A DNA stretch of 9,766 bases from a virus (Duplodnaviria; Heunggongvirae; Uroviricota; Caudoviricetes), in the IMG/VR virus record IMGVR_UViG_2657244961_000006; one strand, 5' to 3'. Below the pieces are notes generated by a model, which did not search any database, was not told the origin of the DNA, and was given only the letters and a program-made list of their open reading frames with translations. Shown piece after piece: positions 1 through 8,970 of the stretch. A program made the position numbers and the translations under genes. Positions within the stretch are counted from its first letter, which is position 1, and each line of letters starts with the position of its first letter.

Positions 1-1239
1 ATGGGCAGCGCAATTCATAGACTTAGCGATACTTTTTTACGAAAATTAAGCGGATCACCAGCCACAAAAAACGCCTTTTTTAATGACGGTGGCAATCTTA
101 GCGTAAGACATTCCACCAGCGGCCTTTTAACCTGGTATTTCACTTACAGGGCCGGAACTGGTAGGCAGGTATCACCTGAACGTCTGAGGCTGGGCAATTA
201 TCCCGATCTGAGCCTGAAAGCAGCCAGGGAAAAAGCGGCACAGTGTCGCGCCTGGCTGGCGGAGGGGAAAAATCCACGCCATGAGCTTAATCACACAGTG
301 CAGGAAGCGTTATCACCTGTGACGGTTAAGGAAGCGCTCACTTACTGGCTTGAGTCGTATGCGAAGGAAAAGCGCACAGACTACGAATCTCTGAAGAGCC
401 GGATCAATAAACACATAATCAGCCAGATTGGCGCTATGCCGCTGGAGAAATGCGAGCTACGGCACTGGCTGGCCTGTTTTGATCAGATGGCAAAGCTAAG
501 CCCTGTATCTGCCGGATTTTTGCTACAGGTATGCAAGCAGGCGCTTAAATACTGCCGCAAACGTCGCTACGCAATCAGCAACGTTCTTGATGATATGGTT
601 GTCGGTGATGTGGGAAAAAAAGCAGAAGTGAGCGAGCGCGTACTAACAAACAAGGAGCTTGGGGAATTACTCCGCGCCCTGGATGACAAAATATTCCCGC
701 CGTACTACAGCGCCCTGATTCGCCTCCTGATTGTTTTTGGATGCCGTACCACTGAGCTAAGACGCTCTGAGGTGCAGGAGTGGGATTTTAAGGAAATGCT
801 CTGGACAGTGCCGAAGGAGCACAGCAAAACGAAGGTCGCCATATTCAGGCCAATACCGGAAAGCATTTTGCCGTTCGTCACGCAGCTGGTGGAGCAGAAC
901 CGACGCACGGGTTTATTGCTTGGTGAACTGAAAGGGCAATCTTCGGTAGCAGAGTACGGAAGAACAGCGCACAGGCGCATTAATCAAGCCCCCTGGTCGT
1001 TGCATGACATCCGGCACACATTTACAACCATGCTGAACGATTTAGGCGTGGATCCGCATATTGTCGAGCAGCTTACAGCCCACCAGATGCCAGGGATGCA
1101 ACGAGTCTATAACCACTCCCGCTATCTTGATGCAAAACGTGATGCTCTTAACCTATGGGTAGACCGTCTCGAGCTTCTCCAGAACAATGATGAAAAAATC
1201 GTTGTTATGACCCCGCGAATTTACCACCAAAATTCTTGA
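1..1239 (+). CDS. int: Tyrosine recombinase, P4-type integrase (412 aa)
   Basis: ORF 1-1239. N-terminal arm-binding-like region typical of P4-family integrases, and C-terminal catalytic motifs: R in TTELRRSE, H-x-x-R in HDIRHTF, Y in VYNHSRY. Starts at window position 1, so the true N-terminus could lie upstream. Confidence 0.9.
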   Translation: MGSAIHRLSDTFLRKLSGSPATKNAFFNDGGNLSVRHSTSGLLTWYFTYRAGTGRQVSPERLRLGNYPDLSLKAAREKAAQCRAWLAEGKNPRHELNHTVQEALSPVTVKEALTYWLESYAKEKRTDYESLKSRINKHIISQIGAMPLEKCELRHWLACFDQMAKLSPVSAGFLLQVCKQALKYCRKRRYAISNVLDDMVVGDVGKKAEVSERVLTNKELGELLRALDDKIFPPYYSALIRLLIVFGCRTTELRRSEVQEWDFKEMLWTVPKEHSKTKVAIFRPIPESILPFVTQLVEQNRRTGLLLGELKGQSSVAEYGRTAHRRINQAPWSLHDIRHTFTTMLNDLGVDPHIVEQLTAHQMPGMQRVYNHSRYLDAKRDALNLWVDRLELLQNNDEKIVVMTPRIYHQNS

Positions 1240-1320: not shown

Positions 1321-1656
1321 GCTTTACATATATCAACCATCAAAAAATTGGAATGTCTTCTTCTGAACTTTTATTCTCTGTTTCTTGATTGTTCCAACAC
1401 TTGATGGTTTATCTATTTGTTTTTAATGAGATAATTCAAGCGTAATGACAAATGACGACATTTTTTGTTGCGTCTCTGAAAAACTCGTGACACGATTTTA
1501 AACACTGACGAGCTTCTACGAACCTTAGCGAACATAGCTTTTGGCAAGGTTGTGTCTTTAATCTAAGAGGTGAAAAAGAATCTAAGTAATATCCGATCTC
1601 ATATATCTACAGCTAAGAGAAAAGTTTATATACGTAATTTTTATGTAGGTTTTTGT

Positions 1657-1866
1657 ATGCGTGAAATAAATGAAGATCGCGTAATCCGTGAGGATGAATG
1701 TCGTAAGTTAACTGGAGTGTGTCGTACTACACGCTACGAACTGGAGAAAAAAGGGAGCTTTCCGTCTCGCCGTAATCTTGGTGGGCGTTCTGTAGGTTGG
1801 CTGCTGTCCGAGGTTATGGAATGGGTTAAAAGCCGGGATCGCATTAATTCAGGTAAGGCAGCGTAA
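1657..1866 (+). CDS. alpA: AlpA-family transcriptional regulator / excisionase-like protein (69 aa)
   Basis: In-frame ATG at 1657 inside ORF 1570-1866. Product MREINEDRVIREDECRKLTGVCRTTRYELEKKGSFPSRRNLGGRSVGWLLSEVMEWV has the AlpA/MerR-like HTH pattern (helix, GGR-x-VGW, E-x-x-EW). Size matches AlpA (~70 aa); the GTG at 1570 would give an atypical 98-aa form. Confidence 0.8.
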   Translation: MREINEDRVIREDECRKLTGVCRTTRYELEKKGSFPSRRNLGGRSVGWLLSEVMEWVKSRDRINSGKAA

Positions 1867-2174
1867 AGGGGAGCATATGACATATAAAACAAAGGCGACC
1901 TGGGGCGGTCGCCAATGGATACACACTAAACTTGAACGCATCACCAACAATGCCACATTTGCGGCTGGTGGGCAATGTGATCAGTCAGATTTGGTTCGTT
2001 CCAAGGTTTGCAACGAGAGCTTTTTCCTGTGCTCTTTAAGGAATTTCTCAAGAGCAAAAGCACATGGCGCGAATCTTTCTGATTCATGCTCTATCTTTCT
2101 GTGCCGTCTTTTCCGTGCTGGTGATAATGTTTTGGTCAATTCTTTATCGGTCATTGTGCTGCCCTGTAAAGCAA

Positions 2175-2202
2175 TGCGCCGTAGTACCTCACACCACGGC
2201 GC
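2175..2202 (-). terminator. Hairpin gcgccgt-N13-acggcgc just downstream of the minus-strand RHH gene; candidate terminator
   Basis: 7-bp GC-rich stem read directly, 13 nt past the stop of the 2215-2517 gene on the minus strand, followed by a modestly T-rich stretch on that strand. Confidence 0.4.
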
Positions 2203-2214
2203 GGATGGTGATTA

Positions 2215-2517
2215 TTATGATTCTTGGGCTTTACGTCGCTGGAGTTCTTCACGAGCGACGGCTACGAGTTGCCCGATTTCCTCCGCTGCCCTGATGCCTA
2301 TTTGTTCGACCTTAGCTAGGGCATCCAGTGAAGACACAAGGGGATTTTCTCCGCTGCCTTCTGCCTTGCGGCGGGCGATCTCACCACGAACGGCTGTAAT
2401 CACGAAAGCGGCTATTGTTTCCCCTTCCGTTTTCGAATTTTCCATTTCCTCGATTACATCATGGGGGAAGCGGATATTTTTCATTTGCGATCTGCTATTG
2501 ATGTTTCCTGTTGCCAT
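2215..2517 (-). CDS. Putative ribbon-helix-helix (Arc/CopG-like) DNA-binding regulator (100 aa), divergent from the replication operon
   Basis: ORF 2215-2517 on the minus strand. N-terminal KNIRFPHDVIEEME fits an RHH beta-strand followed by helices; balanced charged composition. The overlapping plus-strand frame is Ser/Cys-rich and low-complexity, typical of antisense. The start could instead be the internal Met 11 codons downstream. Confidence 0.6.
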   Translation of the reverse strand: MATGNINSRSQMKNIRFPHDVIEEMENSKTEGETIAAFVITAVRGEIARRKAEGSGENPLVSSLDALAKVEQIGIRAAEEIGQLVAVAREELQRRKAQES

Positions 2518-2538
2518 CAGAATGTCCGGTTATTTTAA

Positions 2539-2634
2539 GGTGTGTACACATTACACCAAAAGGTGTGTTAATAAAACACTTGACGCGGTAGCACACTTAA
2601 ATTTAACCTGTACATACACCAGTGATTGTGGTGT
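2539..2634. promoter_or_regulatory. Divergent control region with repeated GGTGT/ACACC half-sites forming dyad operator candidates
   Basis: Read directly: GGTGTgtacacattACACC (2539-2557, containing the 8-bp palindrome GTGTACAC), ACACCaaaaGGTGT (2553-2566), GTGTTaataaAACAC (2565-2579), ACACCagtgattgtGGTGT (2616-2634); a TTGACG -35-like hexamer at 2580-2585. Lies between the leftward RHH gene and the rightward Icd-like/primase operon. Confidence 0.5.
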
Positions 2635-2707
2635 ATATACAGCAACGCCCCGCAGTGCTGGAACACATGCAGGGCGTCTAACCAAACCGTTAAACGAGGT
2701 AACGATT

Positions 2708-2905
2708 ATGGCTGGAACACAGCATACCCCACGACTAGCGCACACACAAACGGCCTTTGTGTGGCGTTTTCTGGCACTGAGTGCCGGAGAATCCCAAATC
2801 ATCCACGTCACCGCCTGGACGGAAAGCGAAGCGCGTAACCATTGCCCGTCCGGTTGTGTCGCTGTATTCGCCGCCCGTATTCGTCAGGAGGTGCGCCATG
2901 CCTGA
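2708..2905 (+). CDS. Small Icd-like / Ash-family-like protein (65 aa), first gene of the rightward replication operon
   Basis: ATG at 2708 with a GAGGT Shine-Dalgarno ~10 nt upstream; this is the C-terminal 65 codons of the long ORF 1877-2905. Product MAGTQHTPRLAHTQTAFVWRFLALSAGESQIIHVTAWTESEARNHCP... resembles, from memory, the small Icd-like proteins annotated in P4-type prophages. Family assignment is unverified. Confidence 0.55.
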   Translation: MAGTQHTPRLAHTQTAFVWRFLALSAGESQIIHVTAWTESEARNHCPSGCVAVFAARIRQEVRHA

Positions 2906-3218
2906 TATGTCAAATTACCAGTACCTGATTAATCCGCATTTTAACTGTGAGCATGATATTGCTAAAAAGGTTTATTCCGCTGCGGATGGGGCTACTGACA
3001 ATATATCAATGGGTATTGCGTCAATTGGTAGCCTGATGTGGCATGCGTCAGAAAATGAGGACTATGACGAAAAGGCTATGCGCATTGATATGGGTAATAT
3101 CGGTTTGTTACTGGCAATGCTTGGACATTTTGATATTTCGTTACGGTGCACCATTGAAAATGCCACAGATGCATTAAATGCCATAAAGAAAGCGAATACT
3201 GATTCAAATCGGGGATAA
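2898..3218 (+). CDS. Hypothetical protein (106 aa)
   Basis: ATG at 2898 preceded by a strong SD (caGGAGGtg, 2885-2892) and overlapping the stop of the upstream gene; the ORF-track frame 2781-3218 extends further upstream but that part overlaps the Icd-like gene. Acidic product, no recognisable motif. Confidence 0.55.
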   Translation: MPDMSNYQYLINPHFNCEHDIAKKVYSAADGATDNISMGIASIGSLMWHASENEDYDEKAMRIDMGNIGLLLAMLGHFDISLRCTIENATDALNAIKKANTDSNRG

Positions 3219-3224
3219 ATAATC

Positions 3225-3524
3225 ATGAGAACGTATTTATCTGGCTTGACTGCCAGCGGTTATGCACATCCCAAAATTATCCCCGGCGCTATTTATCGGG
3301 ATAAGAACGGCAACAGAGTAACAGTAAAATCGATAATGTTTGACCGTGTGTACTTTATTCGTGATGGCTATTCATTTCATAGCTCGCTGAACGTGGAGAT
3401 CTTTATTTGCAGATTCCGGCGGGAAATCCCGCCTTCCAGAAATAACCATGTGTCACGTGTGGATGTGGATAAAAAACTACAGGAACTGAAAAACATGATT
3501 GCCGCGTGGAGAGAGCAGAAATGA
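3225..3524 (+). CDS. Hypothetical protein (99 aa), translationally coupled to the primase
   Basis: ORF 3225-3524 with a GGGGA SD upstream; its stop (TGA 3522-3524) overlaps the primase start (ATG 3521-3523) in an ATGA arrangement. Confidence 0.55.
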   Translation: MRTYLSGLTASGYAHPKIIPGAIYRDKNGNRVTVKSIMFDRVYFIRDGYSFHSSLNVEIFICRFRREIPPSRNNHVSRVDVDKKLQELKNMIAAWREQK

Positions 3525-5338
3525 AAAAAGCGCCAAATTTAAAACACCAACCGCGTGACAAAATGACGGAAGTCATCATTTTTGCGGGTAGTGATGCGTG
3601 GGCACATGCGAAGCAGTGGCAGGAACAGGACGGGCGACTGGCTGGCGATAACGTGCCACCTGTCTGGCTTGGAGAGCAACAACTTGCCGAACTGGACAAC
3701 CTGCAAATCGTACCGGACGGACGCTATCGCGTGCGTCTCTACCAGGCGGGGTTATTGCGTCCGGGGCTTGTTAATACCATCGGGCAGAAACTGGCAGCGG
3801 CAGGTGTCAGGGATGCTGATTATTACCCTGAAGGAATGCACAGCCAGAAACGGGAGAACTGGCGCGAATATCTGGAACGTGAACGGGCAGAGCAGGCGGA
3901 AAAGAAAAAGGTAGTTGAACTGCCTGTAAAGAAAAAAGAGCGGGTAAAAGACGATAACGCTTCATCACTGGCGCTTAACCAGATGGGAGCAAGTCAACGC
4001 GGCGAAGTTCTCCTGGCACATTATGGCGGTGAACTGGCGATTCATGCTGACTCTGACACTGTTCACCATTACAACGGCGTTGTATGGGAGCCAGTACAGG
4101 ATAAAGAATTACAGCGAGCTATGGCACAGATTTTCATTGATGCGGAGATCAGCTATTCGCAGAACGCCATTAAATCGGCGGTCGATACCATGAAGTTAAG
4201 TTTGCCTGTAATGGGGAATACAGCCCGTAACCTGATTGGATTCAGTAACGGGGTATTTGATACCAGAACAGGTAATTTTCGGGAGCATAACAAAAACGAC
4301 TGGTTGTTAATTGCCAGTGAATTACCTTTCAGCCCACCAGCAGAGGGGGAAACGCTGGCAACACATGCGCCGAATTTCTGGAAGTGGTTACGCCGTTCGG
4401 TGGCTGAGAATGACCGCAAGGCGGATCGCGTACTGGCTGCATTATTCATGGTGCTGGCGAACCGGTACGACTGGCAGTTATTCATTGAGGTAACAGGTCC
4501 AGGGGGAAGTGGTAAAAGCGTGATGGCGGAGATTTGCACCATGCTGGCGGGTAAGGCCAACACAGTATCGGCAAGCATGAAGGCGCTGGAAGATGCAAGG
4601 GAACGCGCGTTAGTGGTTGGCTTTTCGCTGATTATCATGCCGGATATGACCCGCTACGCTGGTGATGGGGCAGGAATTAAGGCCATTACAGGCGGTGACA
4701 AGGTGGCAATTGACCCGAAACACAAAGCCCCCTACTCAACGCGTATTCCGGCAGTAGTGCTGGCGGTTAACAATAACGCCATGTCATTCAGTGACCGCAG
4801 CGGGGGGATCTCACGTCGTCGGGTGATATTCAATTTTTCGGAAGTTGTACCGGAGAACGAACGCGATCCAATGCTGGCGGAAAAAATAGAAGGTGAGCTG
4901 GCGGTAGTGATTCGCCATCTGCTTACACGGTTTGCTGACCAGGACGAAGCCAGACGCCTGTTATATGAGCAGCAGAAATCTGAAGAAGCACTGGCGATAA
5001 AGCGAGAGGGGGATTCGCTGGTGGACTTCTGCGGCTATCTCATGGCGTCGGTAATGTGTGATGGCCTGTTAGTGGGTAATGCTGAAATTGTGCCATTCAG
5101 CCCACGCAGGTATCTCTATCATGCCTATCTGGCTTATATGAGGGCACATGGGTTTGGTAAACCTGTAACACTGACGCGCTTCGGTAAAGATATGCCGGGG
5201 GCAATGGCGGAATATGGCAGGGAGTATATGAAACGGAAAACGAAGCACGGTTTGCGTTCAAACGTGACACTGACGGAGGAATCAGAAGACTGGATGCCAT
5301 CATGTGTATCGGTCACTAATGACGATAGCAAAAATTAA
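3521..5338 (+). CDS. P4-family phage/plasmid primase with SF3-type helicase domain (605 aa)
   Basis: ATG at 3521 (GGAGAG SD 8 nt upstream) inside ORF 3506-5338. Walker A GPGGSGKS, Walker B-like VVGFSLIIMPD, D5-N / primase C-terminal-like central region. Immediately followed by the cognate-looking iteron array. Confidence 0.85.
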   Translation: MKKAPNLKHQPRDKMTEVIIFAGSDAWAHAKQWQEQDGRLAGDNVPPVWLGEQQLAELDNLQIVPDGRYRVRLYQAGLLRPGLVNTIGQKLAAAGVRDADYYPEGMHSQKRENWREYLERERAEQAEKKKVVELPVKKKERVKDDNASSLALNQMGASQRGEVLLAHYGGELAIHADSDTVHHYNGVVWEPVQDKELQRAMAQIFIDAEISYSQNAIKSAVDTMKLSLPVMGNTARNLIGFSNGVFDTRTGNFREHNKNDWLLIASELPFSPPAEGETLATHAPNFWKWLRRSVAENDRKADRVLAALFMVLANRYDWQLFIEVTGPGGSGKSVMAEICTMLAGKANTVSASMKALEDARERALVVGFSLIIMPDMTRYAGDGAGIKAITGGDKVAIDPKHKAPYSTRIPAVVLAVNNNAMSFSDRSGGISRRRVIFNFSEVVPENERDPMLAEKIEGELAVVIRHLLTRFADQDEARRLLYEQQKSEEALAIKREGDSLVDFCGYLMASVMCDGLLVGNAEIVPFSPRRYLYHAYLAYMRAHGFGKPVTLTRFGKDMPGAMAEYGREYMKRKTKHGLRSNVTLTEESEDWMPSCVSVTNDDSKN

Positions 5339-6119: not shown

Positions 6120-6326
6120 GTGAGTTGTATTAATGACCTGAACACGGGCGATATCAGGGGTGGTTCCGTTCATCTGGATGCGCAGACCGTTATGCGCCTT
6201 AAGCAGTACAGGATCGACCATATAAATCATCATCCTGACAAACCATTACCAGGTGTGGCGCAGATTGTCAGACATGCCGTAAACACCTGGCTTAATCAGA
6301 ATGGTTTTGCATCGGTGGGGGAATAA
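6120..6326 (+). CDS. Small putative RHH-like DNA-binding protein (68 aa, GTG start), translationally coupled to the downstream protease/capsid-like gene
   Basis: Strong SD AAGAGGAAG (6105-6113) about 6 nt before GTG 6120; stop TAA overlaps the next ATG (TAATG at 6324-6328). Product contains a beta-strand-like GGSVHLDAQTV followed by helical segments. Confidence 0.5.
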   Translation: MSCINDLNTGDIRGGSVHLDAQTVMRLKQYRIDHINHHPDKPLPGVAQIVRHAVNTWLNQNGFASVGE

Positions 6327-8239
6327 TGAATCGCTGGTACACCATTAAGGCGGCGGATGTTCGTGGAGCGGCGGATATATCTATCTATGAGGAGATTGGC
6401 GGCTTCGGTGTTACTGCAAAGCAGTTCGCGGAAGACCTGAAAGCCCTTGGCGATGTTTCACATATCAATCTGAGGATCCATTCACCAGGTGGTGATGTGT
6501 TTGAAGGCATCGCCATCTATAACCTGCTACGGAATCATCCGGCAGACATTACGGTTTATATCGATGGTGTTGCGGCTTCAATGGCTTCGGTGGTCGCAAT
6601 GGCTGGCGATCGTGTTGTGATGCCGGAAAACGCCATGATGATGATACATAAGCCGTGGGGTATCTCTGGCGGAAATGCTGGTGATATGCGTGATTATGCT
6701 GATTTGCTGGATAAGGTGGAAACCGTGTTAGTCCCTGCTTATGCCAGAAAAACGGGCAAATCAGCACAGGAAATTACCGCCATGCTGGAAGATGAAACCT
6801 GGATGGACGGGAAAGAATGCCTTAAGCACGGTTTTGCTGATGAATTGTTGCCATCCGTCAGAGCAATGGCGCGAATTGAATCGAAGCGCACAGGAGATTT
6901 TTTACATATGCCGGAAACCATTAAAGGAATGATTACACCGCCACAGGGAGCGGCAAATATTGCTGGTAATGAACAGAAACGCATCAATGGAATAAGTGAA
7001 GTGTTTAGCCTGTTCGGCAGTCGTTACGACGGGATCAAAATGGCGTGTCTGGAAGATGCATCATGTACACCGGAAATGGCCCGTGAAAAGCTGTTGAACG
7101 AGCTGGGGCGCGAGTCCACGCCATCCAATAAAAATACCCCGCCTCATATCTATGCCGGAAACGGAAACATAACAGGTGATGCAATTCGTCAGGGGCTTTA
7201 TTCCCGTCTTGGGTATGAACGCCCTGAACGAGGCAACCCTTACGCGATGATGAGCCTTTTTGAAATGGCCCAGGCATCACTGGTTGATCGTGGTATCACT
7301 GTGAGTGGTTTTATTAATCGCTCGCAGGTTGTTAATGCGGCTTTTACACACAGCAGCAGTGATTTTTCTCATATTCTGGCTGGTGGGGCTGAAAAATCTG
7401 TACTGAAAGGCTGGCAGGACAGCGGCGAAACGTTCCAGAAATGGACGCGTACCGGTTCGCTTTCAAACTTTCATGAAGCAAAGCGCGTTGGTCTGAATGG
7501 TTTTTCAAAGCTGGATAAAGTACCGGAAGGTGCGGAATATAAATACATCACCACCAGCGATAAAGGTGTACCTATTGCGCTGGCCACGTACGGGAATATT
7601 TTTTCCGTTACCCGTCAGGCCATTATCAACGATGACCTGACCCAGTTAACTACAATCCCCATGGCGATGGGACGCGCAGCCGCCAGAACAGTTGGCAATC
7701 TGGTTTATCTCCTGTTAACCAGCAACGGCAAGTTTACGGATGGTAAAGCGTTATTCCATGCCGATCATAAAAATCTTATTGCGAAGGATATGGACATGGT
7801 GGGGCTTGATGAAGCCCGTAAGCTGATGCGCCTCCAGGAGGATGCTAACGGCGACTCACTGAATATTACCCCTGCTTTTGTTCTGGTCCCTGCCGCGCTG
7901 GAATCTGCCGCGCGTCGCGCCATTCTGTCATCGTCATCAGTCTTTCCGGTTGGTGATGAGGGCACTATCAATCAGAACCCCGGCATCATTAACGTTGTGA
8001 AAGATATGGCAGAAGTAATTGTTGAGCCACGTCTTGATAAGGCCAATAGCAAGGAATGGTATGTAGCCGCAGCTAAGGGGATGGACACAATAGAAGTCGC
8101 TTATCTTGATGGTATGGATACGCCATATCTTGAGGAGCAGGTGGGCTTTACTGTTGATGGTGTCGCCTGGAAGGTGCGCATAGATGCAGGTGTCGCGGCC
8201 CTCGATTATCGTGGATTGCTGAAATCGAATGGAGCATGA
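6326..8239 (+). CDS. Fusion protein (637 aa): N-terminal ClpP-like (S14) prohead-protease domain plus large C-terminal domain, possibly an HK97-fold major capsid-like domain
   Basis: ORF 6326-8239. Residues ~20-190 show the ClpP signature (GDVFEGIAIYN, GVAASMASVVAMAGD with the candidate catalytic Ser, MMMIHKPWG with the candidate His, later acidic residues). The C-terminal ~430 aa are long enough for a scaffold plus capsid domain; the capsid assignment is from general resemblance only. Confidence 0.8.
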   Translation: MNRWYTIKAADVRGAADISIYEEIGGFGVTAKQFAEDLKALGDVSHINLRIHSPGGDVFEGIAIYNLLRNHPADITVYIDGVAASMASVVAMAGDRVVMPENAMMMIHKPWGISGGNAGDMRDYADLLDKVETVLVPAYARKTGKSAQEITAMLEDETWMDGKECLKHGFADELLPSVRAMARIESKRTGDFLHMPETIKGMITPPQGAANIAGNEQKRINGISEVFSLFGSRYDGIKMACLEDASCTPEMAREKLLNELGRESTPSNKNTPPHIYAGNGNITGDAIRQGLYSRLGYERPERGNPYAMMSLFEMAQASLVDRGITVSGFINRSQVVNAAFTHSSSDFSHILAGGAEKSVLKGWQDSGETFQKWTRTGSLSNFHEAKRVGLNGFSKLDKVPEGAEYKYITTSDKGVPIALATYGNIFSVTRQAIINDDLTQLTTIPMAMGRAAARTVGNLVYLLLTSNGKFTDGKALFHADHKNLIAKDMDMVGLDEARKLMRLQEDANGDSLNITPAFVLVPAALESAARRAILSSSSVFPVGDEGTINQNPGIINVVKDMAEVIVEPRLDKANSKEWYVAAAKGMDTIEVAYLDGMDTPYLEEQVGFTVDGVAWKVRIDAGVAALDYRGLLKSNGA

Positions 8240-8267: not shown

Positions 8268-8431
8268 GCGGCGAGCTGCCGCACCATATTCCTGAACAAC
8301 TGAGCAAACGAGAGAGGTATACCGACAAATGGCAGCGACGCACACACTCCCTCTGGCGTCACCGGGCATGGCACGCATCTGCCTTTACGGGGATTTACAA
8401 CGATTTGGCCGCCGCATCGATCTTCATGTGA
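8268..8431 (+). pseudogene. Start-less 3' remnant of a lambdoid tail-tip assembly protein K-like gene, overlapping the start of the I-like gene
   Basis: The frame is open from 8240 to the TGA at 8429-8431 with no start codon, encoding ...GELPHHIPEQLSKRERYTDKWQRRTHSLWRHRAWHASAFTGIYNDLAAASIFM. This resembles the C-terminus of lambda K as I recall it, and in lambda K overlaps I in the same way. Confidence 0.5.
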
Positions 8432-8970
8432 AAACGGGGGCCGAAGCCATCCGGGCGCTGGCCATGCAGATCCCAGCGTTTCGTCAGAAACTGAGCGATG
8501 GTTGGTATCAGGTGCGTATTGCCGGGCGTGATACAGGCGAAAACGAATTATCAGCCCGTCTTAATGAACCGCTGGAAAATGGTGCCGTGATCCACATCGT
8601 ACCGCGTCTGGCTGGTGCCAAAAGTGGCGGCGTGTTTCAGGCGGTGCTTGGTGCGGCGCTGATTGCTACGGCAATCTGGATGCCAGGAATCAGTATCGCT
8701 TTCAGTGACATTCTCTTTTCAATGGGGGCGGCGATGACACTTGGTGGTGTTGCACAGATGCTGGCACCGAAAGCCAGCACAGCAACAGCCAGCACCACGG
8801 ATAACGGTAAGCAGAACACCTATTTCTCCTCTCTGGATAACATGGTTGCCCAGGGCAATGTTATGCCTGTTCTGTACGGTGAAATGCGCGTCGGGTCGCG
8901 GGTGATTTCGCAAGAGATCAGCACAGCAGATGAAGGGGATGGCGGCCAGATTGTGGTGATTGGTCGCTGA
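8329..8970 (+). CDS. Lambdoid tail-tip assembly protein I homologue (213 aa)
   Basis: ORF 8329-8970. N-terminus MAATHTLPLASPGMARICLYGDLQRFGRRIDL... and C-terminus ...DNGKQNTYFSSLDNMVAQGNVMPVLYGEMRVGSRVISQEISTADEGDGGQIVVIGR closely match my recollection of phage lambda gpI. The central hydrophobic segment is shorter than in lambda. Confidence 0.8.
   Translation: MAATHTLPLASPGMARICLYGDLQRFGRRIDLHVKTGAEAIRALAMQIPAFRQKLSDGWYQVRIAGRDTGENELSARLNEPLENGAVIHIVPRLAGAKSGGVFQAVLGAALIATAIWMPGISIAFSDILFSMGAAMTLGGVAQMLAPKASTATASTTDNGKQNTYFSSLDNMVAQGNVMPVLYGEMRVGSRVISQEISTADEGDGGQIVVIGR

Follow-up and report, generated by a model that had tools for sequence, protein, structure and literature searches.

Introduction

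How the replication operon of a Gram-negative phage-inducible chromosomal island (PICI) is controlled is a question raised by a short intergenic region of the virus record IMGVR_UViG_2657244961_000006. The whole stretch of 9,766 bp (the window) was analyzed, and all positions given are those of the window. In the island EcCICFT073, AlpA activates the downstream genes and is itself induced by helper phages (PMC6092414). In the window, the gene for a ribbon-helix-helix (RHH)-like protein of the YlcI/YnfO family diverges from an operon that is headed by an Icd-like gene and includes a primase gene. An earlier note, made from the sequence alone, had taken the GGTGT/ACACC repeats between these genes for the operators of an RHH repressor. 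The 190 bp at 2518-2707 probably form the control region of a PICI-type island, in which a layer of RHH operators would be combined with a layer of antisense RNA.

Results

The intergenic repeats form an array of five single sites

The repeats described in the earlier note were recovered in full: GGTGT-N9-ACACC at 2539-2557, ACACC-N9-GGTGT at 2616-2634, and a nested ACACC-AAAA-GGTGT at 2553-2566, between flanking genes that are divergent. The embedded palindrome, given as GTGTACAC at 2542-2549, is also present, although its real extent is 10 bp (TGTGTACACA, 2541-2550). The right-hand dyad extends into an inverted repeat with arms at 2608-2621 and 2629-2642, in which 13 of 14 positions are complementary. 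The window holds 21 GGTGT/ACACC pentamers, five of them within 96 bp of this region, and none of 500 dinucleotide-preserving shuffles gave five pentamers in 100 bp. Thus, the cluster is not the product of chance. A weight matrix built from the sites detected no comparable site elsewhere in the window, including at the GGTGT/ACACC before the capsid gene.

Approximately 170 related loci were collected and oriented like the window, from Escherichia coli, Salmonella, Enterobacter, Photorhabdus, Xenorhabdus, and metagenomes. A single-protein scan of genome contigs yielded none of these and an alignment-based scan yielded nine; scans of viral and metagenomic sequences contributed most of the diversity. 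One scaffold was found across the collection: counted from the RHH start codon, five sites of ~10 to 13 bp lie at offsets of ~22, 45, 68, 91, and 113 (O1 to O5; Table 1). A TTGAC element is conserved at offset ~60 to 65 and is followed 17 to 18 nt further on by TAAnnT, and the sites are interleaved with both divergent promoters. The proposal that the 19-bp dyads are the units of recognition was not upheld, as relatives show five single sites ~21 to 25 bp apart instead. The ACACC at 2553-2557 is a class-independent element, which reads TATACAC in other classes and coincides with the likely leftward -10. This predicted -10 element reads TATACT or TATATT in other classes, and the predicted rightward -10 reads TAACAT, TAATGT, TAATTT, or TAAAGT in relatives.

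The inverted repeat at 2608-2642, which a pattern scan lists on the minus strand, was also considered as an RNA hairpin or terminator. This was rejected: arm differences within the class are uncompensated, and O4 and O5 are direct repeats in other classes.

The operator motif follows the predicted DNA-reading strand of the RHH protein

The sequence of the sites is specific to each class of RHH protein and tracks the residues of its β-strand, with at least 10 specificity classes distinguished. Proteins with the strand MKNIRFP, the class of this window, are accompanied by the motif GGTGTGTAC or GGTGTRT. The corresponding motifs are GTGTGTTTCA for LTTVRVP, TGTATATCAC for MTTIRVP, TGTAAGNC for SLTARIP, TGTGATTC for QISIRIP, and GTGGGCCAC for ALKARVP, the class of EcCICFT073. 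The classes QLNARFP and QINARFP, which have the contact residues Q, N, and R in common, share the motif GGNATTCAC. For the six classes represented by nine or more loci, the motif counts were reached by only 1 to 16 of 300 shuffles; the single-locus classes ranged from 0 of 300 to nonsignificant (96 to 296 of 300).

Within the LTTVRVP class, the sites are kept from E. coli to Photorhabdus and Xenorhabdus, and the spacers between them have diverged. The region as a whole is mosaic. Alleles of the RHH C-terminal part, the leader hairpin, the first gene, AlpA, and the primase reassort among the classes, but the operator motif does not. As predicted from this relationship, homologs from Salmonella (49% identical) and Hafnia (47%) that carry the MKNIRFP strand have the motif family of the window at the same positions (GGTGTGTACACATTAC, GTGTGTA, and CACACC), and the Salmonella O1 (GGTGTGTACACATTAC) is identical to that of the window. 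A Serratia protein with the strand ALAARVP is associated with a different motif of its own. Since the motif follows the RHH strand, and not the AlpA, primase, leader, or C-terminal alleles, there is strong comparative evidence that the RHH N-terminal domain would read sites of the O1 to O5 type. Islands of the same class share genomes about as often as random assortment would give (56 places in 55 genomes and 265 places in 260 genomes), a count that is uninformative with respect to hetero-immunity.

The regulator is a YlcI/YnfO protein with a modeled ribbon-helix-helix domain

Residues 9 to 50 of the 100-aa regulator match the N-terminal domain model of the YlcI/YnfO family (NCBIfam NF041551) with 64.2 bits, against a cutoff of 30. 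RefSeq uses the same name for the homologs in E. coli PEC122 and CFT073, and further homologs are present in Escherichia, Salmonella, Yersinia, Erwinia, Enterobacter, Serratia, Citrobacter, Hafnia, and Phytobacter. An AlphaFold model built with 27 homologs (predicted local distance difference test score, 82.7) has an extended segment at residues 8 to 18, helices at 19 to 28 and 35 to 55, and a long helix at 59 to 99. Over about 45 residues, this arrangement has the strand-helix-helix order of the RHH fold. In this model, the protein is an RHH N-terminal domain followed by a long C-terminal helix, which bears out the RHH identity put forward in the earlier note.

Profile alignment by hhalign with Arc and Mnt gave statistically weak probabilities (13% and 2%, respectively), but the register is kept, with N14-x-R16-x-P18 aligned to the N-x-R-x-P shared by both proteins. 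Residues 12, 14, and 16 thereby correspond to Gln9, Asn11, and Arg13 of Arc and, from established structural work on Arc, are likely the base-contacting positions. Across the family, R16 is invariant and residues 12 and 14 are variable. The sequence of the repeated sites covaries with residues 12 and 14, which lends indirect support to a dimer whose paired strands would enter the major groove at repeated subsites.

A cis-antisense RNA is predicted over the start of the Icd-like gene

A conserved cassette that is common to different first genes takes up the rightmost third of the intergenic region and the first codons of the operon. On the minus strand, the predicted RNA has a 5′ stem-loop (2680-2713) that spans the Icd-like start codon and presents the anti-Shine-Dalgarno sequence CCUC in its loop, opposite the Shine-Dalgarno GAGG at 2696-2699. 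Downstream of a 3′ terminator-like hairpin (2644-2678) there is a U-rich tail that is weak in the window and stronger in other classes. Folding of 2630-2714 gave -35.3 kcal/mol (z score, -4.09) for the minus strand and -24.6 kcal/mol (z score, -1.23) for the plus strand. The minus strand was the more stable in 22 of 24 and in 32 of 33 unique hairpin variants.

Strand specificity was also evident in an alignment of 55 unique relatives. The consensus helices comprised 993 Watson-Crick, 182 G·U, and 34 mismatched cells when read on the minus strand and 993 Watson-Crick, 3 G·U, and 213 mismatched cells when read on the plus strand, with consensus structure energies of -26.1 and -10.4, respectively. 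Compensatory changes occur at several pairs, with up to five pair types at one position (e.g., C-G, G-C, A-U, U-G, and G-U). The region therefore has what is generally expected of a cis-antisense RNA, a covarying structure opposite its target and over the ribosome-binding site. A candidate -10 hexamer within the Icd-like coding sequence (Table 1) is retained as TATGCT, TATGAT, TATAAT, or a one-base relative (TAGACT, TTATGCT, or ATATGCT) in 35 of 35 first-gene variants, including those encoding different proteins. An RNA of ~80 nt is thus very likely encoded here. A search of Rfam gave a match to SymR (RF01809) at 2641-2713 on the minus strand that lies below threshold (26.9 bits against a gathering score of 61; E = 0.1) and does not place the RNA in that family. 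No match to C4 or isrK was obtained at an E value of ≤1 in the whole window, and the RNA is not assigned to the C4, CI, or IsrK families.

Other sequence elements were noted in and around this cassette. An exact 11-nt direct repeat, GCTGGAACACA, is present in the loop of leader hairpin 1 (2657-2667) and at codons 2 to 5 of the Icd-like gene (2711-2721); it is not general across other combinations of leader and first gene. The Icd-like coding sequence also contains a terminator-like hairpin on the plus strand at 2743-2773 (CACACAAACGGCCTTTGTGTG and then GCGTTTTCTG), which PEC122 has as well and which occurs in two of the three first-gene variants. Its T-run coincides with conserved WRF codons, and it could be an attenuator, although the evidence is ambiguous. 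The only match to the sigma-70 consensus in 1500-3300 is on the minus strand at 2938-2965 (TTAGCA-16-TAAAAT), in the second reading frame of the operon, and is kept in PEC122. It could give rise to a longer antisense RNA across the Icd-like gene; the number of matches is within chance expectation. Many islands (loci L095, L013, and L138, among others) have, at offsets of ~190 to 360, an extra small gene (MAGTQHTQTHPKFIYTFLAV...) ahead of the Icd-like gene, with the same leader and first ~8 codons as the Icd-like gene of the window. Leader and start are thus exchanged as a unit, whichever protein they head.

Table 1. Position and strand of the genes, predicted control elements, and operator sites discussed in the text
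Feature	Position	Strand	Remarks
Tyrosine integrase gene	1-1239		
alpA, regulator of the Phage_AlpA family	1657-1866	+	Pfam PF05930, E = 4.8e-16
Small basic open reading frame (ORF) of 57 aa, downstream of the RHH gene	1981-2154	-	Optional part of the module
Terminator-like hairpin just past the RHH stop codon	2176-2202	-	Stem of 12 pairs, 7 of them G-C, from a pattern scan
RHH regulator gene, 100 aa, YlcI/YnfO family	2215-2517	-	Residues 12-18 (MKNIRFP) are the predicted DNA-reading strand
Putative operator O1 (GGTGTGTACACAT)	2539-2551	+	Over the predicted leftward transcript start; class specific, at offset ~22 in all classes
Likely -10 of the leftward RHH promoter, TAATGT	2548-2553	-	Conserved, non-class-specific block between O1 and O2
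Putative operator O2 (GGTGTGTTAATAA)	2562-2574	+	Class specific, offset ~45
Predicted -35 of the rightward operon promoter, TTGACG	2580-2585	+	TTGAC conserved here in nearly all classes
Putative operator O3, reverse, core GTGTGC	2588-2599	-	In the -35/-10 spacer; offset ~68-75; weakest copy in the window
Likely rightward -10, TAACCT, 18-nt spacer	2604-2609	+	TAAnnT fixed 17-18 nt after TTGAC across classes
Putative operator O4, reverse (GGTGTATGTACAG)	2608-2620	-	Over the predicted operon start; top weight matrix score; offset ~91-96
Putative operator O5 (GGTGTATATACAG)	2630-2642	+	13/14 inverted repeat with O4
Predicted cis-antisense RNA, ~80 nt	2630-2713	-	Two conserved hairpins
Icd-like gene, 65 aa, first of the rightward operon	2708-2905 (ATG at 2708)	+	NCBIfam NF033153, 63.1 bits (cutoff, 25)
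-10-like hexamer TATGCT inside the Icd-like coding sequence	2721-2726	-	Candidate; could drive the antisense RNA
Unknown ORF, second in the rightward operon	2898-3218	+	
DUF4222 gene, rightward operon	3225-3524	+	
D5-type primase gene, rightward operon	3506-5338	+	

The module belongs to an enterobacterial satellite

Gram-negative PICIs have been defined by an int-alpA pair, a primase/replication module, packaging genes, a length of ~10 to 15 kb, and a dedicated attachment site (Fillol-Salom 2018). The gene content of the window agrees with this definition, as do a homologous island in PEC122 and the presence of the same module in EcCICFT073. With int, alpA, the RHH gene, and the Icd-like/primase operon in the layout described for Gram-negative PICIs (PMC6092414), the window is, by its gene order, an enterobacterial PICI-type phage satellite. 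The PEC122 island (~11 kb, 91% identical) sits between cspD/yljB and clpS, and parts of the stretch 1500-3600 have matches in 1,766 of 5,426 complete E. coli genomes. The window also holds a ClpP-protease/major-capsid fusion, remnants of tail genes, and a DUF1441 protein. At 6326-8239 and 8329-8970, the island encodes this fusion, of a ClpP-like prohead protease with the major capsid protein, but only remnants of tail genes, in which respect it resembles a reduced capsid-forming PICI.

The alpA gene lies upstream of the operon, in the same direction as the operon and convergent with the RHH gene. Of the 126 related loci with a detected alpA homolog, 125 had it on the left and in the plus orientation, giving the order alpA(+)/RHH(-)/operon(+), and a pattern scan found no terminator-like site on the plus strand between alpA and the operon. 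The 57-aa ORF downstream of the RHH gene encodes a very basic protein that matches PHROG 21027, a family of unknown function, and has no match in Pfam or PADLOC and none to a toxin or defense family. PEC122 and CFT073 have it as an annotated gene, many related loci lack it, and a strong minus-strand terminator follows it (1894-1913). The PADLOC scan likewise returned nothing for the RHH protein, the Icd-like protein, or the adjoining ORFs.

EcCICFT073 itself carries the RHH/operator/Icd-like module (locus L172, 10474-11053; E. coli CFT073 NC_004431, 1380473-1381052). The small genes of this island bear high-numbered RefSeq tags (C_RS30120, C_RS30125, and C_RS30800) and were therefore probably absent from the original annotation. 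Earlier EcCICFT073 reporter constructs probably contained genes of the module unnoticed.

Discussion

A two-layer model for control of the Icd-like/primase operon

In the model that we propose, the RHH protein would most likely bind the five ~10- to 13-bp sites (core, GGTGTRT), which are spaced by about two turns of the helix. The predicted leftward -10 is flanked by O1 and O2, whose occupation would autoregulate the RHH gene. O3 lies in the rightward spacer, O4 on the start, and O5 just downstream, and occupancy of these sites would shut off the Icd-like/primase operon. Bound dimers would probably be linked by the long C-terminal helix, as in Mnt. A constitutive ~80-nt antisense RNA, transcribed leftward from within the Icd-like gene, would pair with the ribosome-binding site and start codon and block translation of transcripts that escape repression. 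Both the autoregulation and the assignment of repression, rather than activation, to the RHH sites are suggested by site position, as O3 and O4 fall within the predicted rightward promoter and O1 and O2 lie around the predicted leftward -10, in promoters that fail a consensus scan.

The place of AlpA in such a scheme is more speculative. Helper-induced AlpA might drive transcription from upstream through the convergent RHH gene and into the operon, and this read-through could both lower repressor synthesis and bypass the repressed promoter. It is plausible that activation by AlpA and repression by the RHH protein are reconciled in this manner. A Pseudomonas protein that shares the name AlpA is described as an antiterminator (PMC9998450).

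The repressor/operator geometry drawn in the earlier note survives as an operator array over divergent promoters that covaries with the protein strand, but neither the dyad units nor a conserved site orientation does, and the behavior of a lysogeny switch (bistability or derepression by a helper phage) is not supported. The predicted antisense RNA had no place in that note. The suggestion that the RHH protein is a layer distinct from AlpA fits a literature in which AlpA is treated as the regulator and the global repressor of Gram-negative elements is called "unclear" (PMC6092414), although the repressive sign of that layer is read from site position.

Several observations weigh against this model. 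The orientation of the sites varies by class, being ++--+ in the window and +-+-- in LTTVRVP, and the spacing of ~22 bp is unlike that of classical RHH operators (about 7 to 11 bp). The operators and N-terminal codons lie within 150 bp of one another, and some covariation would result from block inheritance alone. Both divergent promoters fall below the threshold of the consensus promoter scan, the U-tail of the antisense RNA is weak in the window, and its promoter lacks a good -35. The 100-aa protein does not qualify as a member of the Pfam RHH families, for which the best match was PSK_trans_fac (E = 0.0034; 18.7 against 28.3 bits), and it has no sequence match to any solved structure in the PDB; the RHH fold is suggested by a model of the monomer, in which the strand is not formed. 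In EcCICFT073, the RHH protein is 59 aa long, without the C-terminal helix, and has its own motif (GTGGGCCACACC). Overexpression of AlpA alone induces that island (PMC6092414). Given this truncation and the sufficiency of AlpA, the RHH protein may be dispensable or secondary.

Three other explanations of the locus were weighed against the two-layer model. The repeats could be iterons or origin elements for the primase/initiator of the island, or sites for AlpA, with no relation to the RHH protein; PICI origins do have short repeats, and those found here are periodic (~22 bp) and stand at the head of the replication operon. However, a single operator class occurs with AlpA alleles ranging from at least 95% to less than 60% identity and with differing primase alleles, and five different operator classes are found alongside one and the same AlpA or primase allele. 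Because the motif thus ignores the primase and AlpA alleles, this explanation is very unlikely. It is further opposed by the exact interleaving of the sites with conserved -35 and -10 elements, by a motif that tracks the RHH strand even at 47 to 49% overall identity, and by the lack of copies near or after the primase gene, the published place of PICI origins (PMC6092414). Only slightly better odds can be given to a type II toxin-antitoxin pair, in which the RHH protein would be the antitoxin of the 57-aa ORF and the sites would autoregulate the pair without any control of the island. This ORF matches no toxin family and is lacking from many loci, among them 30 of the 33 that make up one RHH class. 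The pairing is therefore unlikely, and the two genes do not fit the description of a type II system. A terminator-like hairpin separates the ORF from the RHH gene, and three of the five sites overlap the opposite, rightward promoter.

The remaining alternative, which we consider improbable but less so than the other two, is that immunity is in truth conferred by the antisense RNA, with the RHH protein either activating or doing no more than adjusting its own level, in which case the repressor reading would overrate the protein. Here, the support for a strand-specific, covarying RNA is no weaker than that for protein binding, both P1 (C4 RNA before icd-ant) and P4 (CI RNA) use RNA for immunity (PMC10111431 and established knowledge), and the truncated EcCICFT073 protein points in the same direction. 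Yet the leader alleles of the RNA reassort freely and exist in few variants, whereas the pairing of operator and RHH protein in at least 10 specificities is the pattern expected of an immunity determinant, and O3 and O4 occupy the positions of repressor sites. The two-layer model, with the RHH protein as repressor and the RNA as a second layer, is our preferred reading and one that we consider likely.

Relationship to known immunity systems

The closest architectural parallel is the immI region of phage P22, where a small RHH repressor (Mnt, with a C-terminal oligomerizing helix) is divergent from the operon that it controls, operators lie over both promoters (Pmnt and Pant), and a short antisense RNA, sar, acts at a ribosome-binding site in the operon. 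The DNA-reading strand is also in register (N-x-R-x-P) with those of Arc and Mnt. In contrast to P22, which is a phage with two RHH proteins, one or two compact symmetric operators, and an antirepressor as the controlled gene, the satellite studied here has one RHH protein, five sites ~22 bp apart, and an operon of Icd-like and replication genes, and its similarity to Arc and Mnt is nonsignificant (hhalign, 2 to 13%). As in the immI region of P1 and P7 (C4-icd-ant) and in CI of P4, which are likewise of phage or satellite setting, the ribosome-binding site of an operon-leading Icd-like gene would be targeted by a small structured RNA. C4 and CI are cut from a same-strand leader and act through short complementary boxes, whereas the RNA predicted here is an opposite-strand cis-antisense RNA, and those systems are not known to have an RHH/operator layer at that position.

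The Stl repressor of Staphylococcus aureus pathogenicity islands (SaPIs) and Rpr of Gram-positive PICIs also diverge from an excision-replication operon, between the integrase and replication sides, and exist in many specificity variants. Stl and Rpr are large proteins of the helix-turn-helix and not of the RHH type, and it has been demonstrated that proteins of helper phages derepress the islands that they control. For the present islands, AlpA is the established activator (PMC6092414). The antisense RNA resembles SymR of the SymE/SymR pair in being a ~77- to 80-nt cis-antisense RNA with a promoter inside the target coding sequence and in spanning the ribosome-binding site and start codon. 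SymR is also the only Rfam signal in the region; this resemblance is architectural only, and the target here is not SymE but the Icd-like gene that heads a long operon. Omega of pSM19035 and CopG provide a precedent for RHH dimers on short asymmetric repeats, direct or inverted, that are arrayed over promoters. The heptads of Omega are contiguous (7-bp register), unlike sites 21 to 25 bp apart, and there is no sequence relationship.

Neither an operator array with its RHH repressor nor the control of an icd-type gene by antisense RNA is a new kind of regulation (P22 immI and P1 immI). New here would be their combination in a satellite, a YlcI/YnfO protein as repressor, the five-site architecture with ~22-bp spacing, and the many specificities. 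No functional description of YlcI/YnfO, of an RHH/CopG protein, or of an antisense RNA in PICIs was found in the searchable literature, which covers few subscription journals.

Implications for Gram-negative PICIs

A broader proposal, which we put forward tentatively and regard as possible rather than probable, is that the YlcI/YnfO RHH protein and the cis-antisense RNA together are the maintenance (immunity) system of enterobacterial PICIs and the counterpart of Stl. It would exist in at least 10 hetero-immune specificities and would be overridden by AlpA through convergent read-through, possibly with antitermination, which would silence the RHH gene and bypass the promoter. A code relating residues 12 and 14 to the operator sequence is predicted. 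If the RHH protein is indeed a repressor, this would be the first function for the uncharacterized YlcI/YnfO family, and control of this kind would explain the silence of the replication operon and of the potentially toxic Icd-like gene. Gram-negative PICIs are widespread and mobilize genes for virulence and defense; a swappable repressor/operator pair with an antisense RNA would, if the proposal is true, be the missing negative arm of their regulation.

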